Shown here one piece after another: positions 1 through 20,018 of a DNA stretch of 29,026 bases. Origin of the DNA: a virus (taxonomy: Duplodnaviria; Heunggongvirae; Uroviricota; Caudoviricetes); IMG/VR virus record IMGVR_UViG_2671180727_000014, positions 1 to 29,026 of that record. One strand, given 5' to 3'. A model generated the notes under the pieces. That model made no database searches, was not told the origin of the DNA, and saw only the letters and a list, made by a program, of their open reading frames with translations. Both the position numbers and the translations under genes were made by a program. The first letter of the stretch is position 1. Every line of letters starts with the position of its first letter.

Positions 1-3590
<3,590 letters not shown>

Positions 3591-7798: not shown

Positions 7799-8185
7799 AT
7801 GTCTGATAACAAGATTGAATTTATAGAAAGTCGCTACGCTGCTTTTATCGCAGGGTTGATTGAATCCTCACCTATGAGTCAGGCCCAAATAGCCAGACTT
7901 ATTGGTTACAAAAATGCCAACAACCTTTCTTTAATTAAAAGTGGCAAAATTCCTTTGCCTATCGATAAGGTTCGTCCGTTGGCGCTGGCGCTGGGTATTG
8001 AGCCAAGTCGTCTTATGATGATGGTGCTGGAAGAACGCCAACCTGAACTCGCAGCATTTTTATACAAAGAAGGCACCGCTCCTCTTAACGAGGACGAAAA
8101 ACAGGTTCTTGCTGCATATAACGAGCGATTCGGTAAAGAGAAAGGCGCATCACAAAAGGTTGTTGAGGCCATAAAGTCTCTATGA
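7799..8185 (+). CDS. helix-turn-helix (XRE/Cro-CI-like) transcriptional regulator, 128 aa
   Basis: HTH-like segment SQAQIARLIGYKNANNLSLIKSGKIP; divergent from and convergent-overlapping with the recombinase gene; palindromic operator in its own promoter. Confidence 0.6.
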   Translation: MSDNKIEFIESRYAAFIAGLIESSPMSQAQIARLIGYKNANNLSLIKSGKIPLPIDKVRPLALALGIEPSRLMMMVLEERQPELAAFLYKEGTAPLNEDEKQVLAAYNERFGKEKGASQKVVEAIKSL

Positions 8186-9283
8186 AAAATTTACACGAAT
8201 AAGCTCTGTTGATAGACGATCTCCCTTAAATTTGTGGTCAATTTCGTCTAAATCCGGTTGCTCTACGATTGATGCGATGTACGTCGAGAAACTTTCTAAG
8301 GCGTCTCGCATCTCGTCCATATAATCGTGCCGGTCGTAGACCCGATCTATCCCCTCAAGACTGTGGTTCATGATTTTACGTGATACCTCCTGGCTTATGC
8401 CTAATGCTGGGAAGTAACTACGCGCAGTACGGCGCAAATCTCGGGGTGTAAATGGCTCAAGCTCCATCAGTTCTGGTCGTTCCAGAATACGACGTAATGC
8501 CTGGGCTATTGCCACTTTAGACATAGGAAGGTCTTTCCCGATTTTTTTATTCGAAGGCACGAGCCACTGGCTGTCTTTACCATATTCGAACAACTCTTCA
8601 ATACAAGTGCGCATTAATGAGCTTAAAGGCAGAGAATGCTCACGGGCAGATTTGTTCCTCTTGCCTTGATTCCAAACCCCACGCTTAAGATTGAACTCAC
8701 TTTTTTTAGCCCGCAGTACTTCGTCAGGTCGTCTTGCGGATACAAGACATAGCCTGGCCGCCCATTTTGTACCAGCACACACATTGAAGTAGTCCCATAT
8801 ATTCCAGAACACCCATACCTCTGCGTCGGTCAGCTTCCGCTCGCGAGGTGTGGGCTTTGCGCCACCGGCAACTTTGTTAAGTGACATATCGTTTAACGGT
8901 GACACGTCTATCATCCCCTGGAAGGCGCACCAGCTAAGGAACTGCTTCATCAGAGAGAAAACGCGGCGGCCCATAACAATTTTGCCATCCAGTATTAGTG
9001 GGTTGACCAGTTGGTTCACCATGAACCTATTAATGTCACTTACTTTTACATCGGCAATGTGCGGCAAAACATGTATCAAAATACAATGAACAGCGATCTC
9101 TGGCCGACGTCTGGTTATCAGCAGAGATAAGCGAGTGAATAACATGAATGCGTCCGAGAATCTCATGTCATTGCTGACCTGGGAGATCATAACGGCCTGC
9201 ATTTGAGATGCTCTTTCGAGATACTCTATCGCCTCTTTTGAGGTGTTCTCCGCAGCGCGTGCTCTGTCAAAGCTATTTTTCAT
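8180..9283 (-). CDS. tyrosine site-specific recombinase (integrase/resolvase family), 367 aa
   Basis: C-terminal catalytic-region pattern: ...ARRPDEVLRA..., FTPRDLRRTARSY (HxLRxT-like box), IMNHS, and the putative catalytic Tyr in RVYDRH. Confidence 0.75.
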   Translation of the reverse strand: MKNSFDRARAAENTSKEAIEYLERASQMQAVMISQVSNDMRFSDAFMLFTRLSLLITRRRPEIAVHCILIHVLPHIADVKVSDINRFMVNQLVNPLILDGKIVMGRRVFSLMKQFLSWCAFQGMIDVSPLNDMSLNKVAGGAKPTPRERKLTDAEVWVFWNIWDYFNVCAGTKWAARLCLVSARRPDEVLRAKKSEFNLKRGVWNQGKRNKSAREHSLPLSSLMRTCIEELFEYGKDSQWLVPSNKKIGKDLPMSKVAIAQALRRILERPELMELEPFTPRDLRRTARSYFPALGISQEVSRKIMNHSLEGIDRVYDRHDYMDEMRDALESFSTYIASIVEQPDLDEIDHKFKGDRLSTELIRVNFS

Positions 9284-9381: not shown

Positions 9382-9414
9382 AATGATTCCATACATAGTA
9401 GGTATGGAATCATT
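9382..9414. repeat. lox/dif-like site: perfect 13-bp inverted repeats flanking a 7-bp asymmetric spacer (AATGATTCCATAC-ATAGTAG-GTATGGAATCATT)
   Basis: Read directly from the sequence; lies about 100 bp upstream of the tyrosine recombinase start codon (9283). Confidence 0.55.
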
Positions 9415-11655: not shown

Positions 11656-11742
11656 TGGCGGAGAGTAATGGAATCGAACCATCATCGCTTGCGCAATGGG
11701 ACGGTTTTCAAGACCGCTTGAGCACCATGCTCCCTACTCTCC
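11656..11742 (-). tRNA. tRNA-Ser (anticodon UGA), long variable arm, CCA encoded
   Basis: Reverse complement GGAGAGT...GCGGT-CTTGAAA-ACCGT...GATGG-TTCGATT-CCATT-ACTCTCC-G-CCA: 7-bp acceptor stem, anticodon loop CU-UGA-AA, T-loop TTCGATT. The D-arm is not fully resolved by hand. Confidence 0.7.
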
Positions 11743-11966
11743 GGCCGTTGTGGTGGCCGGTACTGAATCTCCGGCATACGGTGCAGCCAATTAGGACTAC
11801 GGACGATCACCGCTCGCGAAAGGGAAGATTTGCGGCCGCATTTCCCTAACATCCAAGAAAGCTATCGCATCAGTCTGCGAATCCACCACAACGGTAAGAT
11901 CACTACCTTTCGACCAGTCATTGTGCACATGAACGACGATTAACCGTAATGATCTTATCGTTGTAT

Positions 11967-12042
11967 TGGTGCCGGTTAGCGGACTCGAACCGCTGACATC
12001 CTGCTTACAAGGCAGGCGCTCTACCAACTGAGCTAAACCGGC
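11967..12042 (-). tRNA. tRNA-Thr (anticodon UGU), CCA encoded
   Basis: Reverse complement GCCGGTTTAGCTCAGTTGGTAGAGCGCCTGCCTTGTAAGCAGGATGTCAGCGGTTCGAGTCCGCTAACCGGCACCA: perfect 7-bp acceptor stem, anticodon loop CTTGTAA, T-loop GGTTCGAGTCC. Confidence 0.85.
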
Positions 12043-12046
12043 AATT

Positions 12047-12133
12047 TGGTGGGGAGTGATGGAGTCGAACCACCCGAGTCGCAATGACAGTAGATTTACA
12101 GTCTACCCCGCTGCCCCTACGGACTAACTCCCC
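12047..12133 (-). tRNA. tRNA-Tyr (anticodon GUA), long variable arm, CCA encoded
   Basis: Reverse complement GGGGAGT...GTAGA-CTGTAAA-TCTAC...GGTGG-TTCGACT-CCATC-ACTCCCC-A-CCA. Confidence 0.8.
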
Positions 12134-12138
12134 TAAAT

Positions 12139-12213
12139 TGGCGATGGTGGGTGGATTCGAACCACCGACCAGTTGGTTAACAGCCAACTGCTCTACCGCT
12201 GAGCTACACCATC
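12139..12213 (-). tRNA. tRNA-Asn (anticodon GUU), CCA encoded
   Basis: Reverse complement GATGGTGTAGCTCAGCGGTAGAGCAGTTGGCTGTTAACCAACTGGTCGGTGGTTCGAATCCACCCACCATCGCCA: 7-bp acceptor stem, anticodon loop CTGTTAA. Confidence 0.85.
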
Positions 12214-12406
12214 AATTCAGCACTGCCAGTATTTATTACTCAACAGTGCCAATCGCGACGGTTTAGTTTCTGCCAGGAAACGCACCGCTACTTGCACTTT
12301 TCGTTAGTGCCAGACGCTTTCGACTTCGCTCAATAGTAGAAGGCAAAATCTTTAAGTAGATGATGTTTCTGAGGACAGCACCTACTTTGTAATTTATACA
12401 ATGTGA

Positions 12407-12421
12407 TGTATGGAATCATTT
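12407..12421 (+). repeat. copy of the 15-mer ATGTATGGAATCATT (half-site of the lox-like inverted repeat)
   Basis: Exact 15-mer, also present at 13418-13432 (+), at 9382-9396 (minus orientation), and with one mismatch at 9400-9414. Confidence 0.6.
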
Positions 12422-12478
12422 GTTGTGAAAACAGGCACCAATGGCAACAGTGGTTAAACCTACACAACAATCCTGTCT

Positions 12479-12602
12479 TCACAACGTTGAGGCCACTACT
12501 CCGATTGAATGTTTGCCCAACATGTTACATATCAACGCTCGCCGGTATCTCTGTGAATAGAACCTTAGAATTGATAAAAATGTAATGGCCTCAACGTTGT
12601 GT
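12479..12602. repeat. long-range inverted repeat: 16-nt arms (CACAACGTTGAGGCCA / its complement) separated by about 90 nt in a 780-bp ORF-poor region
   Basis: Read directly: ...cttcacaacgttgaggccact... at 12479-12496 and ...atggcctcaacgttgtgtg... at 12585-12602. Confidence 0.5.
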
Positions 12603-12763
12603 GCTGGCTAACCATACCAGCCGGGCTACGTCGCCGCTTTTTAACCCAGTATAAACGACATAATTGAACAAAATGACGTAACAGGATGGGCGGTCAGTGG
12701 CTAAGAATCCGGGAGTCATATGGAGTTGAAAATATACCAACCGCCCATTCTGTTACTTCATCG

Positions 12764-12787
12764 GAGGGAACATGAATGTTCCCTCCT
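12764..12787. repeat. 24-bp palindrome GGAGGGAACAT-GA-ATGTTCCCTCC
   Basis: Read directly; no flanking U-tract, so it looks more like a protein-binding site or RNA structure than a terminator. Confidence 0.5.
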
Positions 12788-12960
12788 GCGTTCTGCAATC
12801 ACACTCGCTCAGTGTGTCCCATTTCGGTAACGAGGCTGGAAACTGACCTCGCTGGTGTTTGGCTTATTAGGCTACTGCCAGATAGACTTCTTCGTTTGCA
12901 CTTGTATTTAAGTTCAAACAGTCGCGTCTCAACGAAAACAAAGTCATCTTATACATAAAA

Positions 12961-12982
12961 GATAAGTAAGTAAATACTTATC
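12961..12982. promoter_or_regulatory. palindromic site GATAAGTA-AGTAAA-TACTTATC
   Basis: 8-bp inverted repeat arms; member of the dispersed TAAGTA/TACTTA palindrome family. Confidence 0.35.
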
Positions 12983-12991
12983 ATTGTATTT

Positions 12992-13282
12992 TTATTCGGT
13001 TGTGACTTTTTTGATCAAGGCCACTCTACGACTAGGTGTTCTTGTGATGGTGGCAGTGAACCGTTTCGCTTGGATAGTAATGGTTTCGTTCTCCTTAAGT
13101 TGCCCGTAGCGAGTTTCCACCAGGGTGCCAAGACGCCACAGACCATCATCGATACGTTTATGACTAGCAAATTTTATCAGCAACAGTTTTACGACTAACT
13201 GACCTACGTAAAAGGCGAATGCGACTCCGGCCGCTAAGAAATAGGTGGCCAACCACCAGTCCCAAGAAGTTAAATTGCTCAT
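12992..13282 (-). CDS. small membrane protein (96 aa, one N-terminal transmembrane helix)
   Basis: Hydrophobic stretch WLATYFLAAGVAFAFYVGQLVVKLLLI; weak AAGG ribosome-binding site upstream. Confidence 0.45.
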   Translation of the reverse strand: MSNLTSWDWWLATYFLAAGVAFAFYVGQLVVKLLLIKFASHKRIDDGLWRLGTLVETRYGQLKENETITIQAKRFTATITRTPSRRVALIKKVTTE

Positions 13283-13427
13283 TTTCTAACCTTTGTTTCA
13301 TGAACTACCCGATACACACGCTTTCCGATGCACAGTGTTTTGGTTTTAAGTTCCTGCTTAATTAAATCACGACAGATGCCGAAGCCAATAAGGAAGCCAC
13401 CCATAAAAGCTAATGAGATGTATGGAA

Positions 13428-13643
13428 TCATTTTAACGCTCCTGATTCTACTAATTGCTGTAGCAATACTTTCCCTTTATCAGTTAACTGGTAGTTGGCC
13501 GAGCACCACGTTTCAGAAACGTTTGCAACCAACCCTAAACGCTCTAACTTAGCTCGCGTTTTAGGCTTCCAGTACTCAGGGAACTCCGGCCACTTACTGA
13601 TTTCATGAAGCGTTTCTTTCTCCCTTTTACTTAATACGATCAT
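13428..13643 (-). CDS. hypothetical protein (71 aa), translationally coupled to the ligase gene
   Basis: Start ATG overlaps the ligase stop (ATGA overlap); hydrophilic composition. Confidence 0.5.
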   Translation of the reverse strand: MIVLSKREKETLHEISKWPEFPEYWKPKTRAKLERLGLVANVSETWCSANYQLTDKGKVLLQQLVESGALK

Positions 13644-15496: not shown

Positions 15497-16273
15497 TTAC
15501 CAACTTCCCCAGCTAATCATCTTGCGCTGATCGCTTTCTAAGCGATAGGGGGCAAGAAGCTCTGTGACATGATTGGTGGCGTATGATTTGGCCTCTTGCT
15601 CTATCATCGGTAATTCGTTAGCAATCCTGACCATCTTCCCAGCAAATTCCGCCATTACGCCATCACACGCCTTACCCGCATCAACAATGATATGCACAAG
15701 ATCCAACTGGCTTTTGCACATGTCCCAAAGAGTCGAATATTCGCTCTCCCTGATTAGGTTTACAGCATCATTAGCCCCTTTATTAATCAAAACCTCCAAC
15801 AGGTTTTTCGGGGTAACGAAATCTGCTTTCAGAGATAGTGTCTTTTCACCACTTATCGAACGCAAGTACTCTTCGTAGTTATTCTTCATCAAACCGCTGC
15901 TGCGCATTGCTAGAACTGCTTCTTGAATGGCCGCTTCAATAGTTTCGTCGTTTGAAAGACAAAAAACGGTATTTGTGTAGATCACTTTGCCATCCATCCA
16001 TGCACCAACCTGCACTTTAAGACTGAGCGGGTTTTCTTTGCTAATAAAAACAACTAATGCAGAACGCCGTGCACAAGAAGGTTCACCCCATACGTGTAAC
16101 TCAACTTTCAGATAAGGTAGCCCTGGTAGCGGGATCTCAACCAAACGAGTGGCGATATGATCCATTGCTGTTTTTACCGCTTTTTCAATGATGTCTAGTC
16201 GATTGCTCTCGCTGATTTCTAAACCAGTTTTATCAATGATGTCGCAGGCTAATTTCTGAATTTCGTCTTTCAT
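15497..16273 (-). CDS. hypothetical protein, 258 aa
   Basis: ORF with protein-like composition; palindrome ATAAGTA-ATCATC-TACTTAT upstream at 16314-16334. Confidence 0.55.
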   Translation of the reverse strand: MKDEIQKLACDIIDKTGLEISESNRLDIIEKAVKTAMDHIATRLVEIPLPGLPYLKVELHVWGEPSCARRSALVVFISKENPLSLKVQVGAWMDGKVIYTNTVFCLSNDETIEAAIQEAVLAMRSSGLMKNNYEEYLRSISGEKTLSLKADFVTPKNLLEVLINKGANDAVNLIRESEYSTLWDMCKSQLDLVHIIVDAGKACDGVMAEFAGKMVRIANELPMIEQEAKSYATNHVTELLAPYRLESDQRKMISWGSW

Positions 16274-16313: not shown

Positions 16314-16334
16314 GATAAGTAATCATCTACTTAT
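16314..16334. promoter_or_regulatory. palindromic site ATAAGTA-ATCATC-TACTTAT upstream of the 258-aa gene
   Basis: Inverted repeat read directly; same TAAGTA/TACTTA family. Confidence 0.35.
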
Positions 16335-16348
16335 TTTAGCGGCACTTG

Positions 16349-19747: not shown

Positions 19748-19770
19748 GGTAGGTAGTTACTTACTTATCA
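19748..19770. promoter_or_regulatory. palindrome-family site GGTAGGTAGTTACTTACTTATCA; a second palindrome AATAAGT-T-ACTTATT lies at 19871-19887
   Basis: Read directly in the AT-rich divergent region between the 249-aa gene and the GIY-YIG gene. Confidence 0.35.
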
Positions 19771-20018
19771 CAATGAGCGGATGATAGCGACTGGTGGCAG
19801 TTTTTGGAAGTGGAAACGGAAGGGAGTTGTTCTGGTGGTGTCTTTTAAAAGACCTGCTTCCGTATATATTTAATAAGTTACTTATTATTTATATATACAG
19901 AAGCAGGCATAACTTGTCGTCTTAGACGCCCAGAAGCTCTACACTTTGAGCCTGTTAAATTGATTAAAAACTTATGTGTAAAATAGAACGCATTAGTCAG
20001 TAGCAAAGAGATGCAATA

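Follow-up and report, generated by a model that had tools for sequence, protein, structure and literature searches.

A structured RNA gene with a probably tmRNA-derived 5′ module in an SSU5-type phage-plasmid of Escherichia coli

What is encoded between positions 12214 and 12991 of the viral record IMGVR_UViG_2671180727_000014, a segment which lacks any convincing protein gene? We analysed the whole 29,026-nucleotide stretch of this IMG/VR record (the window), which is an SSU5-type phage-plasmid of Escherichia coli with 98–100% identity to phage Cyrano (pLF82), phage CMS-2020a and plasmid CP088831. An earlier note had pointed to several repeats in the segment and had offered three candidate functions, namely a replication origin or primase/helicase loading region, a structured non-coding RNA, or a packaging site. 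We found that the region encodes, on its minus strand, a large structured RNA, here named RNA-A, and we hold with high confidence that this RNA gene carries a 5′ module derived from transfer-messenger RNA (tmRNA). The minus-strand direction, the sharp boundaries of the 5′ module and the kind of RNA, a tmRNA-like tag template, had all been overlooked in the earlier note.

RNA-A is ~725 nt long and runs on the minus strand from the G of GUUUUCGU, its inferred start, to the base before the tRNA-Asn gene (12939 to 12214). Compared with shuffled sequence, folding gave z scores of −11.4 for the minus strand and −8.0 for the plus strand. The region is present, at ~78% identity, in 773 plasmids from Klebsiella, Enterobacter, Salmonella, Yersinia pestis (pMT1), Citrobacter and Cronobacter, and also in IMG/VR loci retrieved through the neighbouring protein. 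A consensus structure of 127 pairs, derived from 18 representatives, had 98.9% of its cells paired, as opposed to 33–45% in controls in which the pairing partners were slid by 1–3 columns, and 13 pairs changed on both sides (1–4 in the controls). A covariance check across relatives, which the earlier note had called for, did find paired structure with compensatory changes. When read on the minus strand, the helix cells contained 247 G-U pairs against 9 A-C, an excess which fixes the strand of the transcript, since G-U pairs would be mismatches on the plus strand, and which also rules out a cruciform of double-stranded DNA. Covariation, this strand bias, a conserved promoter and a tRNA gene directly downstream uphold the structured non-coding RNA among the three functions first proposed, while the origin and packaging proposals are rejected below. 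All four sequence features to which the earlier note had drawn attention were real, lying at or within 1–3 nt of the positions given for them. An Rfam scan of 12200–13000 at E ≤ 10 returned only sub-threshold tmRNA matches and no other curated family, and in the lists of Y. pestis small RNAs those reported for pMT1 map elsewhere than the element.

Judging from its sequence, the first ~170 nt of RNA-A are an evolutionary derivative of the messenger RNA-like domain of enterobacterial tmRNA. This core consists, in order, of a small 5′ hairpin, a single-stranded resume context, a 10-codon frame, a helix-5-like hairpin with the stop codons and an H-type pseudoknot. The resume-codon context, UUAAAUACAAGU (12900–12911, minus), has an A at −4, as does E. 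coli tmRNA, in which this residue (A86) is essential and the frame is set 4 nt downstream of it (PMC2481249). It is followed by a tag frame of 10 codons with no conserved start codon (12864–12899, minus), which reads ANEEVYLAVA and ends in two stops. In E. coli ssrA the sequence is AAAAAAUAGUC, then GCA AAC GAC GAA AAC UAC GCU UUA GCA GCU UAA UAA (ANDENYALAA and two stops), and in the window it is AAAUACAAGU, then GCA AAC GAA GAA GUC UAU CUG GCA GUA GCC UAA UAA, so that both tags have 10 codons, the same opening codons, an aromatic residue 6 and A at −4.

These features hold across the family, whose core consensus is AAAnAUAAnU, then GCA AAC GAn ... CUG GCA GUA GCN UAA. The 12 nt upstream of the tag were AAAnAUAAnU-like, with A at −4, in 112 of 112 unique cores, and in 85 of these an in-frame stop precedes any start codon. 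The tags follow the pattern AN[DE]xx[YF]LAVA, and their codons 3–6 vary conservatively, as coding sequence does, with D/E at position 3 and Y/F at position 6. Among the SSU5-type loci found via the neighbouring protein, a sample unbiased as to tag sequence, the frame was intact in 65 of 65, with indels of 1–2 nt only a few nucleotides upstream. ARAGORN independently reported the same frame as a tmRNA tag (ANDNVFLAVA and two stops) in phage Mijalis, the Rfam models tmRNA_permuted and beta_tmRNA align their own resume and tag regions onto the window frame with high posterior probability, and the standard Rfam tmRNA model places the copy in phage HK620 at model positions 83–140.

Within the core, conservation is strongest in the resume context and in helix 5. 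The helix-5-like hairpin (UGGC/GCCA; 12860–12880, minus), which encloses the last codons and the stops, is 100% paired, with alternation between G-C and G-U, and its pairs show compensatory changes. Downstream of it lies the pseudoknot PKa (12817–12852, minus), formed by stem 1 (12852–12846/12836–12830) and by pairing of the loop UUCC (12841–12838) with GGGA (12820–12817). Among the 112 unique cores, PKa stem 1 occurs in four fully complementary variants (CGAGG/CCUCG, UGAGG/CCUCA, CAAGG/CCUUG and CAGGG/CCCUG) and stem 2 in six (UUCC/GGGA, UUCC/GGAA, CUCC/GGAG, CCGA/UCGG, CCAG/CUGG and CCAA/UUGG). The next hairpin, P-d (CACACU/AGUGUG; 12800–12816, minus), has seven fully paired variants, and in other phage lineages, none of them of the SSU5 type, its loop takes part in a second pseudoknot, of which there are five variants differing in length, including GCCC/GGGC, GCCCUGA/UCAGGGC, GCCCAC/GUGGGC and GGCGGGAG/CUCCCGCC. 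An alignment of non-SSU5 cores was 96.4% paired, as opposed to 32–48% in slid controls, with 57 cells changed on both sides, as opposed to 3–8.

When phage genomes were searched by sensitive BLAST with the 5′ 400 nt, the matches numbered 405 records and reached, beyond the SSU5 relatives, ~400 unrelated phages over 100–113 nt at 74–77% identity. A covariance model of the core, R1, which was built from 39 non-SSU5 sequences only and covers the resume context, the tag, helix 5, PKa stem 1 and P-d, matched the window at 12772–12913 (minus) over model positions 1–144 of 144 (81.9 bits, E=6.4e-17), and it also detected SSU5 and the Y. pestis pMT1 copy. In Mooglevirus and Felixounavirus the core is located between tRNA-Ile and tRNA-Arg, in HK620 between the late promoter pR'/qut and the late terminator, and in Klebsiella phage Carvaje upstream of tRNA-Ser; in all three of these contexts, which were the ones examined, it reads in the same sense as the surrounding transcription unit.

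Overall the core was found in 586 phage records, comprising Felixounavirus, Mooglevirus, Vi01-like, T1-like Klebsiella, Erwinia, Hafnia, Cronobacter and Vibrio phages as well as HK620, and in at least 20 distinct genomic contexts in IMG/VR, often among phage tRNA genes or next to them. Of 5426 complete E. coli genomes, 454 (about 8%) carry it, at 259 places on chromosomes and 208 on plasmids. It is conserved above the neighbouring protein (60–80% amino-acid identity). Among the records listed, the annotation under the match was ‘none’, a hypothetical protein or the adjacent tRNA. On plasmid pMT1 of Y. pestis KIM10+ (L080; NC_004838.1, 74100–79606) the F1 capsule operon caf1R-caf1M-caf1A abuts the element at 2489–3007 of that locus, the 3′ part and the tRNAs being missing and the tmRNA-like core kept (R1 82.4 bits at 2800–2938). 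A census of tmRNA from 2014 recorded phage ssrA only in mycobacteriophages and Bacillus phage G. We found no description of the family in the literature on phage tmRNA-like RNAs, SSU5 non-coding RNA or pHCM2 transcriptomes, a search confined to open-access papers and bioRxiv, in which absence is not proof.

How would this RNA be made? A predicted sigma-70-type promoter (12946–12974, minus) consists of a −35 box TTTACT (12974–12969), a 17-nt spacer and a −10 box TAAGAT (12951–12946); it was read directly from the sequence and was not called by a simple consensus scan. In SSU5-type relatives the −10 box is TAAGAT, TATGAT or TATAGT, and Felix O1-like phages have TTGACA-17-TATAGT at the same distance of 6–7 nt from GTTTTCG. 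The 5′-terminal GUUUUCGU (12932–12939, minus) belongs to a near-universal 5′ end of the family, GUUUUCG, for which we saw one AUUUUCG and one UUUUUCG, the eighth base being variable. Its position 6–7 nt after the −10 box is shared by three promoter-driven lineages (SSU5-type, the distant L156 type and Felix O1-like), and this constant spacing places the 5′ end of the RNA at ~G12939, from which we infer that transcription would start under an operator-controlled sigma-70 promoter. Pairing of GUUUUCGU with the tag's own ACGAAGA was considered and rejected, as there was no compensation when codons 3–4 varied. At the other end, no terminator was found before tRNA-Asn, so that the 3′ end of RNA-A is presumably made by RNase P cleavage at the 5′ end of that tRNA.

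The operator-like site is the TAAGTA/TACTTA palindrome of the earlier note, confirmed at 12961–12982. It has the form GATAAGTA-N6-TACTTATC, overlaps the −35 box and is conserved in SSU5-type relatives; written ATAAGTA-N5-TTACTTAT, it is the palindrome form overlapping the RNA-A promoter. The arrangement ATAAGTA-N5-TTACTTATCTTT-(−10) is repeated at 16338–16300, upstream of the open reading frame (ORF) 15497–16273, and a related copy of the TAAGTA/TACTTA palindrome occurs at 19748–19769. As a general form, ATAAGTA-N5-TACTTAT (or ATAAGTAACTTAT) is seen at three intergenic promoter regions, 12961–12982, 16317–16338 and about 19865–19880. The palindrome probably serves a single phage regulator as its operator, and the RNA/tRNA operon and genes of the replication module would then be under joint control. 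As to expression, a bogus coding sequence over the Cyrano tRNAs was transcribed 15-fold above background in LF82 lysogens (PMC9928086), and this transcription of the tRNA cluster is the sole hint that we have.

Downstream of RNA-A, and co-oriented with it, are tRNA-Asn(GUU) (12139–12213), tRNA-Tyr(GUA) (12047–12133), tRNA-Thr(UGU) (11967–12042) and, as the fourth gene of the cluster, tRNA-Ser(UGA) (11656–11742), all on the minus strand. Between tRNA-Thr and tRNA-Ser there is a further element, RNA-B (11743–11966, minus), a homologue of the 3′ domain of HK620-type RNAs, which stops 2 nt short of tRNA-Ser and consists of an M3-type hairpin (11956–11896) and a tRNA-like domain, M4 (11894–11745). 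The HK620-type RNAs have the order hairpin M1, core, hairpin M3 and tRNA-like M4, the last sometimes with canonical D and T arms; at the same locus other P22-like phages carry ordinary tRNAs (PMC8022706). In the window, M4 has an 11-bp acceptor-like stem (CCGUUGUGGUG/CACCACAACGG), a D-like hairpin and a T-like arm GCCGG...CCGGC, and this arm covaries (GCCGG/CCGGC, GCAGG/CCUGC, GUCGG/CCGAC and the canonical CCGG-UUCGACU-CCGG). The GGAUUCGCAG of the D-like hairpin resembles the D-loop of E. coli ssrA, GGAUUCGACG.

A search of 3.7 Mb of loci for GUUUUCG acting as a 5′ acceptor, with a CGRRRRY-NCCA partner beside a T loop, gave nothing convincing, and the tRNA-domain half of the tmRNA_permuted model brought no gain in score on the window. 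The hairpins M1 and M3 are long, have variable tips and each covary locally; their minihelices ending in UCCA or UCCG were rejected as chargeable tRNA-like ends, as the ‘CC’ pairs with an upstream GG. The 749-nt permuted ‘tmRNA’ reported by ARAGORN in Mijalis was likewise discarded, as it spans three tRNA genes and is probably a false union of the tag with a permuted tRNA-like gene unrelated to it.

The Felix O1-like tRNA array of this Citrobacter phage (L146) contains two odd tRNA-like genes, at about 1985–2050 and about 2808–2950. One is circularly permuted, with a T arm and ACCCUUC-G-CCA, 4 nt, and then GAAGGGU and a D-arm-like segment; the other has an acceptor stem, a T arm (loop UUCAACU, as in E. 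coli ssrA) and GCCA, a 95-nt insert replacing the D and anticodon arms. Lambdoid phages (HK620, L147 2290–2900; L151, L158, L165, L172 and others) carry, from late promoter to late terminator, an array of hairpin cassettes with a conserved stem GGUAAGAGCAUU...GUGCUCUUUCC and a hypervariable tip, in some cases with a canonical T arm, and these cassettes are shuffled between phages.

Taking the locus as a whole, we lean slightly towards reading RNA-A as an RNA gene which carries a tmRNA-derived tag template, its frame being read by a resume event with a tRNA-like partner in trans. A transcript from ~G12939 would run through RNA-A into tRNA-Asn, tRNA-Tyr and tRNA-Thr, and the RNase P cut at the 5′ end of tRNA-Asn would release RNA-A. 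Ribosomes would then read the tag frame via a resume of the trans-translation type and not by normal initiation, and stalled nascent chains would receive a phage-specified C-terminal tag ending in YLAVA instead of YALAA. The tRNA-like function could be supplied in trans by RNA-B (11743–11966), where present, or by host tmRNA-SmpB. Templating by itself we would call quite possible, though not the safer bet, and in broader terms the sequence suggests either a template in, or a modulator of, trans-translation. More doubtful, in our opinion, is the further step that a free-standing tmRNA message module hijacks a host or separate phage tRNA-like partner as a new kind of ribosome-rescue RNA, in which a phage-chosen tag ending in LAVA, with the SspB-binding half kept and the ClpX-recognised end changed, would reprogramme protein quality control during infection or plasmid carriage.

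Several observations weigh against templating in trans. Nowhere is the tag template attached to a tRNA-like domain in a topology that known trans-translation can use, and ARAGORN, whether run in intron mode or not, detects no tmRNA in the window; lacking a joined domain, the element falls outside tmRNA despite its message-like front end. An acceptor strand complementary to the near-universal 5′ end was not found. In M4 the acceptor strands are contiguous, so the tag template would be left hanging from its 5′ end, M4 and its homologues have no G3:U70 (their stems are of the UGUGGUG/CACCACA type), CCA is encoded in some members only, and SSU5 itself has no M4. The Rfam scores are far below gathering (beta_tmRNA 14.4 bits, threshold 84; tmRNA_permuted 15.2, threshold 47), and E. 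coli ssrA scores only 10.5 bits on R1, though exactly on the message region, so that homology to tmRNA rests on ~50 nt and on architecture. The IMG/VR pattern fixed codons 1, 2, 7 and 9, positions 1–2 of codons 8 and 10 (Ala regardless) and the stop, and the invariance of these codons in that sample was therefore imposed, only codons 3–6 being free there. Finally, production, processing and translation of the RNA are all predicted from sequence.

The main competing explanation is that RNA-A is an orphan decoy, an untranslated mimic of the message which titrates the frame-setting contact of SmpB, S1 or RNase R and which damps or redirects host trans-translation during phage growth or plasmid carriage. 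It would account for the lack of an attached tRNA-like domain in every lineage examined and for the strongest conservation being in the resume context and helix 5, and it has a precedent in the half-tmRNA of mycobacteriophage DS6A (PMC4131195). A decoy, however, does not need an exact open frame of 10 codons with D/E and Y/F substitutions and a stop, kept intact in every protein-anchored locus while indels occur a few nucleotides upstream, and we consider it unlikely. Less probable still, in our judgement, is a long structured 5′ leader which stabilises the phage tRNA transcript or times its processing, with the tmRNA-like segment as an inert relic of a captured ssrA. The placement immediately before tRNAs or within tRNA arrays in many of the contexts studied, the plain tRNAs at the same locus in P22-like phages and the predicted 5′-3′ closing helices ending a few nucleotides before tRNA-Asn all suit a leader, but HK620-type copies have no tRNA nearby, the core outconserves the neighbouring protein and is kept, with compensatory changes in two pseudoknots, in virulent and temperate phages of several families, and a relic would decay.

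Explanations that do without an RNA are far weaker. In favour of a hairpin-built DNA element, be it a lytic origin, a site for loading primase and helicase or a packaging site, the region sits between the ligase/primase/helicase genes and the polymerase gene and holds a single copy of a 16-mer of which two other copies, elsewhere in the window, make up a recombinase-type inverted pair. We searched it for the marks of an origin and found no DnaA boxes or iterons, no inflection of GC skew and no AT-rich unwinding block besides the promoter, and the plasmid replicon of the relatives is typed IncFIB. The 247 G-U pairs would be A-C mismatches on the other strand, and the core recurs, in tRNA arrays or in late-operon leaders, in unrelated phages with different replication and packaging systems, so that a DNA-level element is very improbable and neither the origin nor the packaging proposal of the earlier note stands. 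Its view that there is no convincing protein gene here was upheld. The one frame open in all representatives, a plus-strand ORF of 60 amino acids (12776–12958) with a conserved ATG, was rejected as the cause of the conservation, an explanation to which we attach almost no credence: indels of 1 and 2 nt among relatives distribute its C-terminal third over three frames, its ATG and what looks like its Shine-Dalgarno sequence form the opposite arms of a hairpin that covaries, this Shine-Dalgarno sequence being lost in most relatives, and the strand-specific G-U pairing favours the minus strand.

Beyond the core, RNA-A has further structure. The 24-bp palindrome of the earlier note (12763–12786, minus; arms 12763–12773/12776–12786, complementary at 11 of 11 positions) is a hairpin homologous to M3, in which 5 pairs change on both sides, and it aligns with CAGGU-AAGAGCAU...GUGCUCUU-UCCG of HK620 and Carvaje. 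The remaining ~550 nt (12790–12214) are an extension specific to SSU5-type phage-plasmids. It contains an interrupted hairpin of 24 bp with a 42-nt variable loop (12672–12762, minus; 99.1% paired, with many G-U/G-C alternations), which is itself SSU5-type-specific, a candidate H-type pseudoknot (12603–12663, minus) and a 19-bp helix around an 82-nt variable loop (12480–12601, minus; 4 pairs change on both sides), all three with some covariation. The pseudoknot, made of a stem 12663–12654/12635–12626 and of GGG (12647–12645) with CCC (12625–12623), and followed by a hairpin at 12621–12603, is tentative, its second stem being only 3 bp and 87% paired. The 19-bp helix is the long-range inverted repeat noted earlier, with 20-nt arms (12480–12499/12582–12601) that are 95% complementary.

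Towards the 3′ end there follow a hairpin GUUGUGAAGACAGG/CCUGUUUUCACAAC (12485–12422) and the 16-mer AAUGAUUCCAUACAUC (12420–12405), which together span 12405–12485 (minus) and of which the 16-mer is invariant in 18 of 18 representatives, and then a 3′ region (12254–12316, minus) with hairpins at 12310–12294 and 12288–12258. Long-range 5′-3′ helices are predicted at 12316–12311/12795–12789 and 12257–12254/12926–12923, ending a few nucleotides before tRNA-Asn; as they are invariant or vary on one side only, these closing helices are unproven model predictions. The series CACAAC ... GUUGUG ... CACAAC at 12603–12596, 12485–12480 and 12427–12422 (minus) would permit two mutually exclusive helices, and the same arrangement, CACAAC ... 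GUUGUGGUG ... CACCACAAC, flanks M3 and M4 in HK620-type RNAs. Such a motif series may be a conformational switch.

The recombinase half-site 15-mer of the earlier note was also recovered, as the 16-mer AATGATTCCATACATC at 12405–12420 on the minus strand. There are 5 copies of AATGATTCCATACATC in the window (0.33 expected; 0 of 100 shuffles reached 5), at 3351–3366(+), 9382–9397(+)/9399–9414(−), 12405–12420(−) and 13417–13432(−). Just upstream of the tyrosine integrase gene (8180–9283), two of these are arranged as an inverted pair around a 7-bp spacer, resembling a lox/dif-type core site. Of the single copies, one is within the polymerase gene, one within the RNA gene and one where a 50-amino-acid ORF (MIPYI...) begins. 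The genes of the window, almost all on the minus strand, include in the neighbourhood of RNA-A an ATP-dependent ligase, a primase, the tyrosine integrase and a CobT-like protein, and the region is bordered on one side by an ORF of 96 amino acids (12992–13282, minus). The tRNA-Ser gene has an unusual D stem of 5 bp with a 3-nt loop and scores 46.6 bits on the Rfam tRNA-Sec model (gathering score 47), above the general tRNA model at that place.

A conserved RNA carried by hundreds of sequenced phages, by SSU5-type phage-plasmids and by about 8% of complete E. coli genomes was unannotated in the records examined. If the tag frame is used, trans-translation could be templated by an RNA that has no tRNA-like domain of its own, with phages rewriting the degradation tag, which would be new both for ribosome rescue and for phage-host conflict. 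If it is unused, RNA-A would be a natural mimic of half a tmRNA, and a useful probe or inhibitor of a pathway which is already an antibiotic target.

Among known systems, the core resembles the one-piece tmRNA (SsrA, RF00023; E. coli ssrA), with which it shares A at −4, the start GCA AAC GA, a 10-codon tag with an aromatic residue 6 and a hydrophobic C-terminus ending in Ala, stops in helix 5 and H-type pseudoknots thereafter. Unlike one-piece tmRNA, it has no tRNA-like domain formed by its ends, no G3:U70, no 3′ CCA and no obvious pseudoknot 1, its tag ends in LAVA and not in ALAA, and in the SSU5 type it adds ~550 structured nucleotides. The two-piece tmRNA of Alphaproteobacteria, Betaproteobacteria, Cyanobacteria and marine phages such as Melnitz (RF01849–51, RF04321) provides a permuted comparator, in which the tag template is likewise on a separate RNA piece that is cut from a precursor by tRNA-processing enzymes; permuted tmRNA models give the best, though sub-threshold, Rfam alignments, and ARAGORN labels the Felix O1-like copy ‘tmRNA*’. 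The coding piece of a two-piece tmRNA, however, starts with a 5′ acceptor strand that pairs with the CCA-ending piece, whereas the phage RNA starts with GUUUUCG, for which no complementary acceptor was found. Mycobacteriophage DS6A has only the tRNA-like domain, and molecules of this kind inhibit tmRNA, possibly because they titrate SmpB (PMC4131195). This is also a phage-borne half tmRNA, but of the opposite half, with the tRNA-like domain kept and the tag frame absent. GOLLD and ROOL are large (500–800 nt), ornate structured non-coding RNAs of phages which occur near tRNA genes. RNA-A is, like them, large, structured, phage-borne and adjacent to tRNA genes; unlike them, it has no Rfam match at E ≤ 10 other than the sub-threshold tmRNA hits, is found in phages of Enterobacterales hosts and carries what is very probably a tmRNA-derived module.

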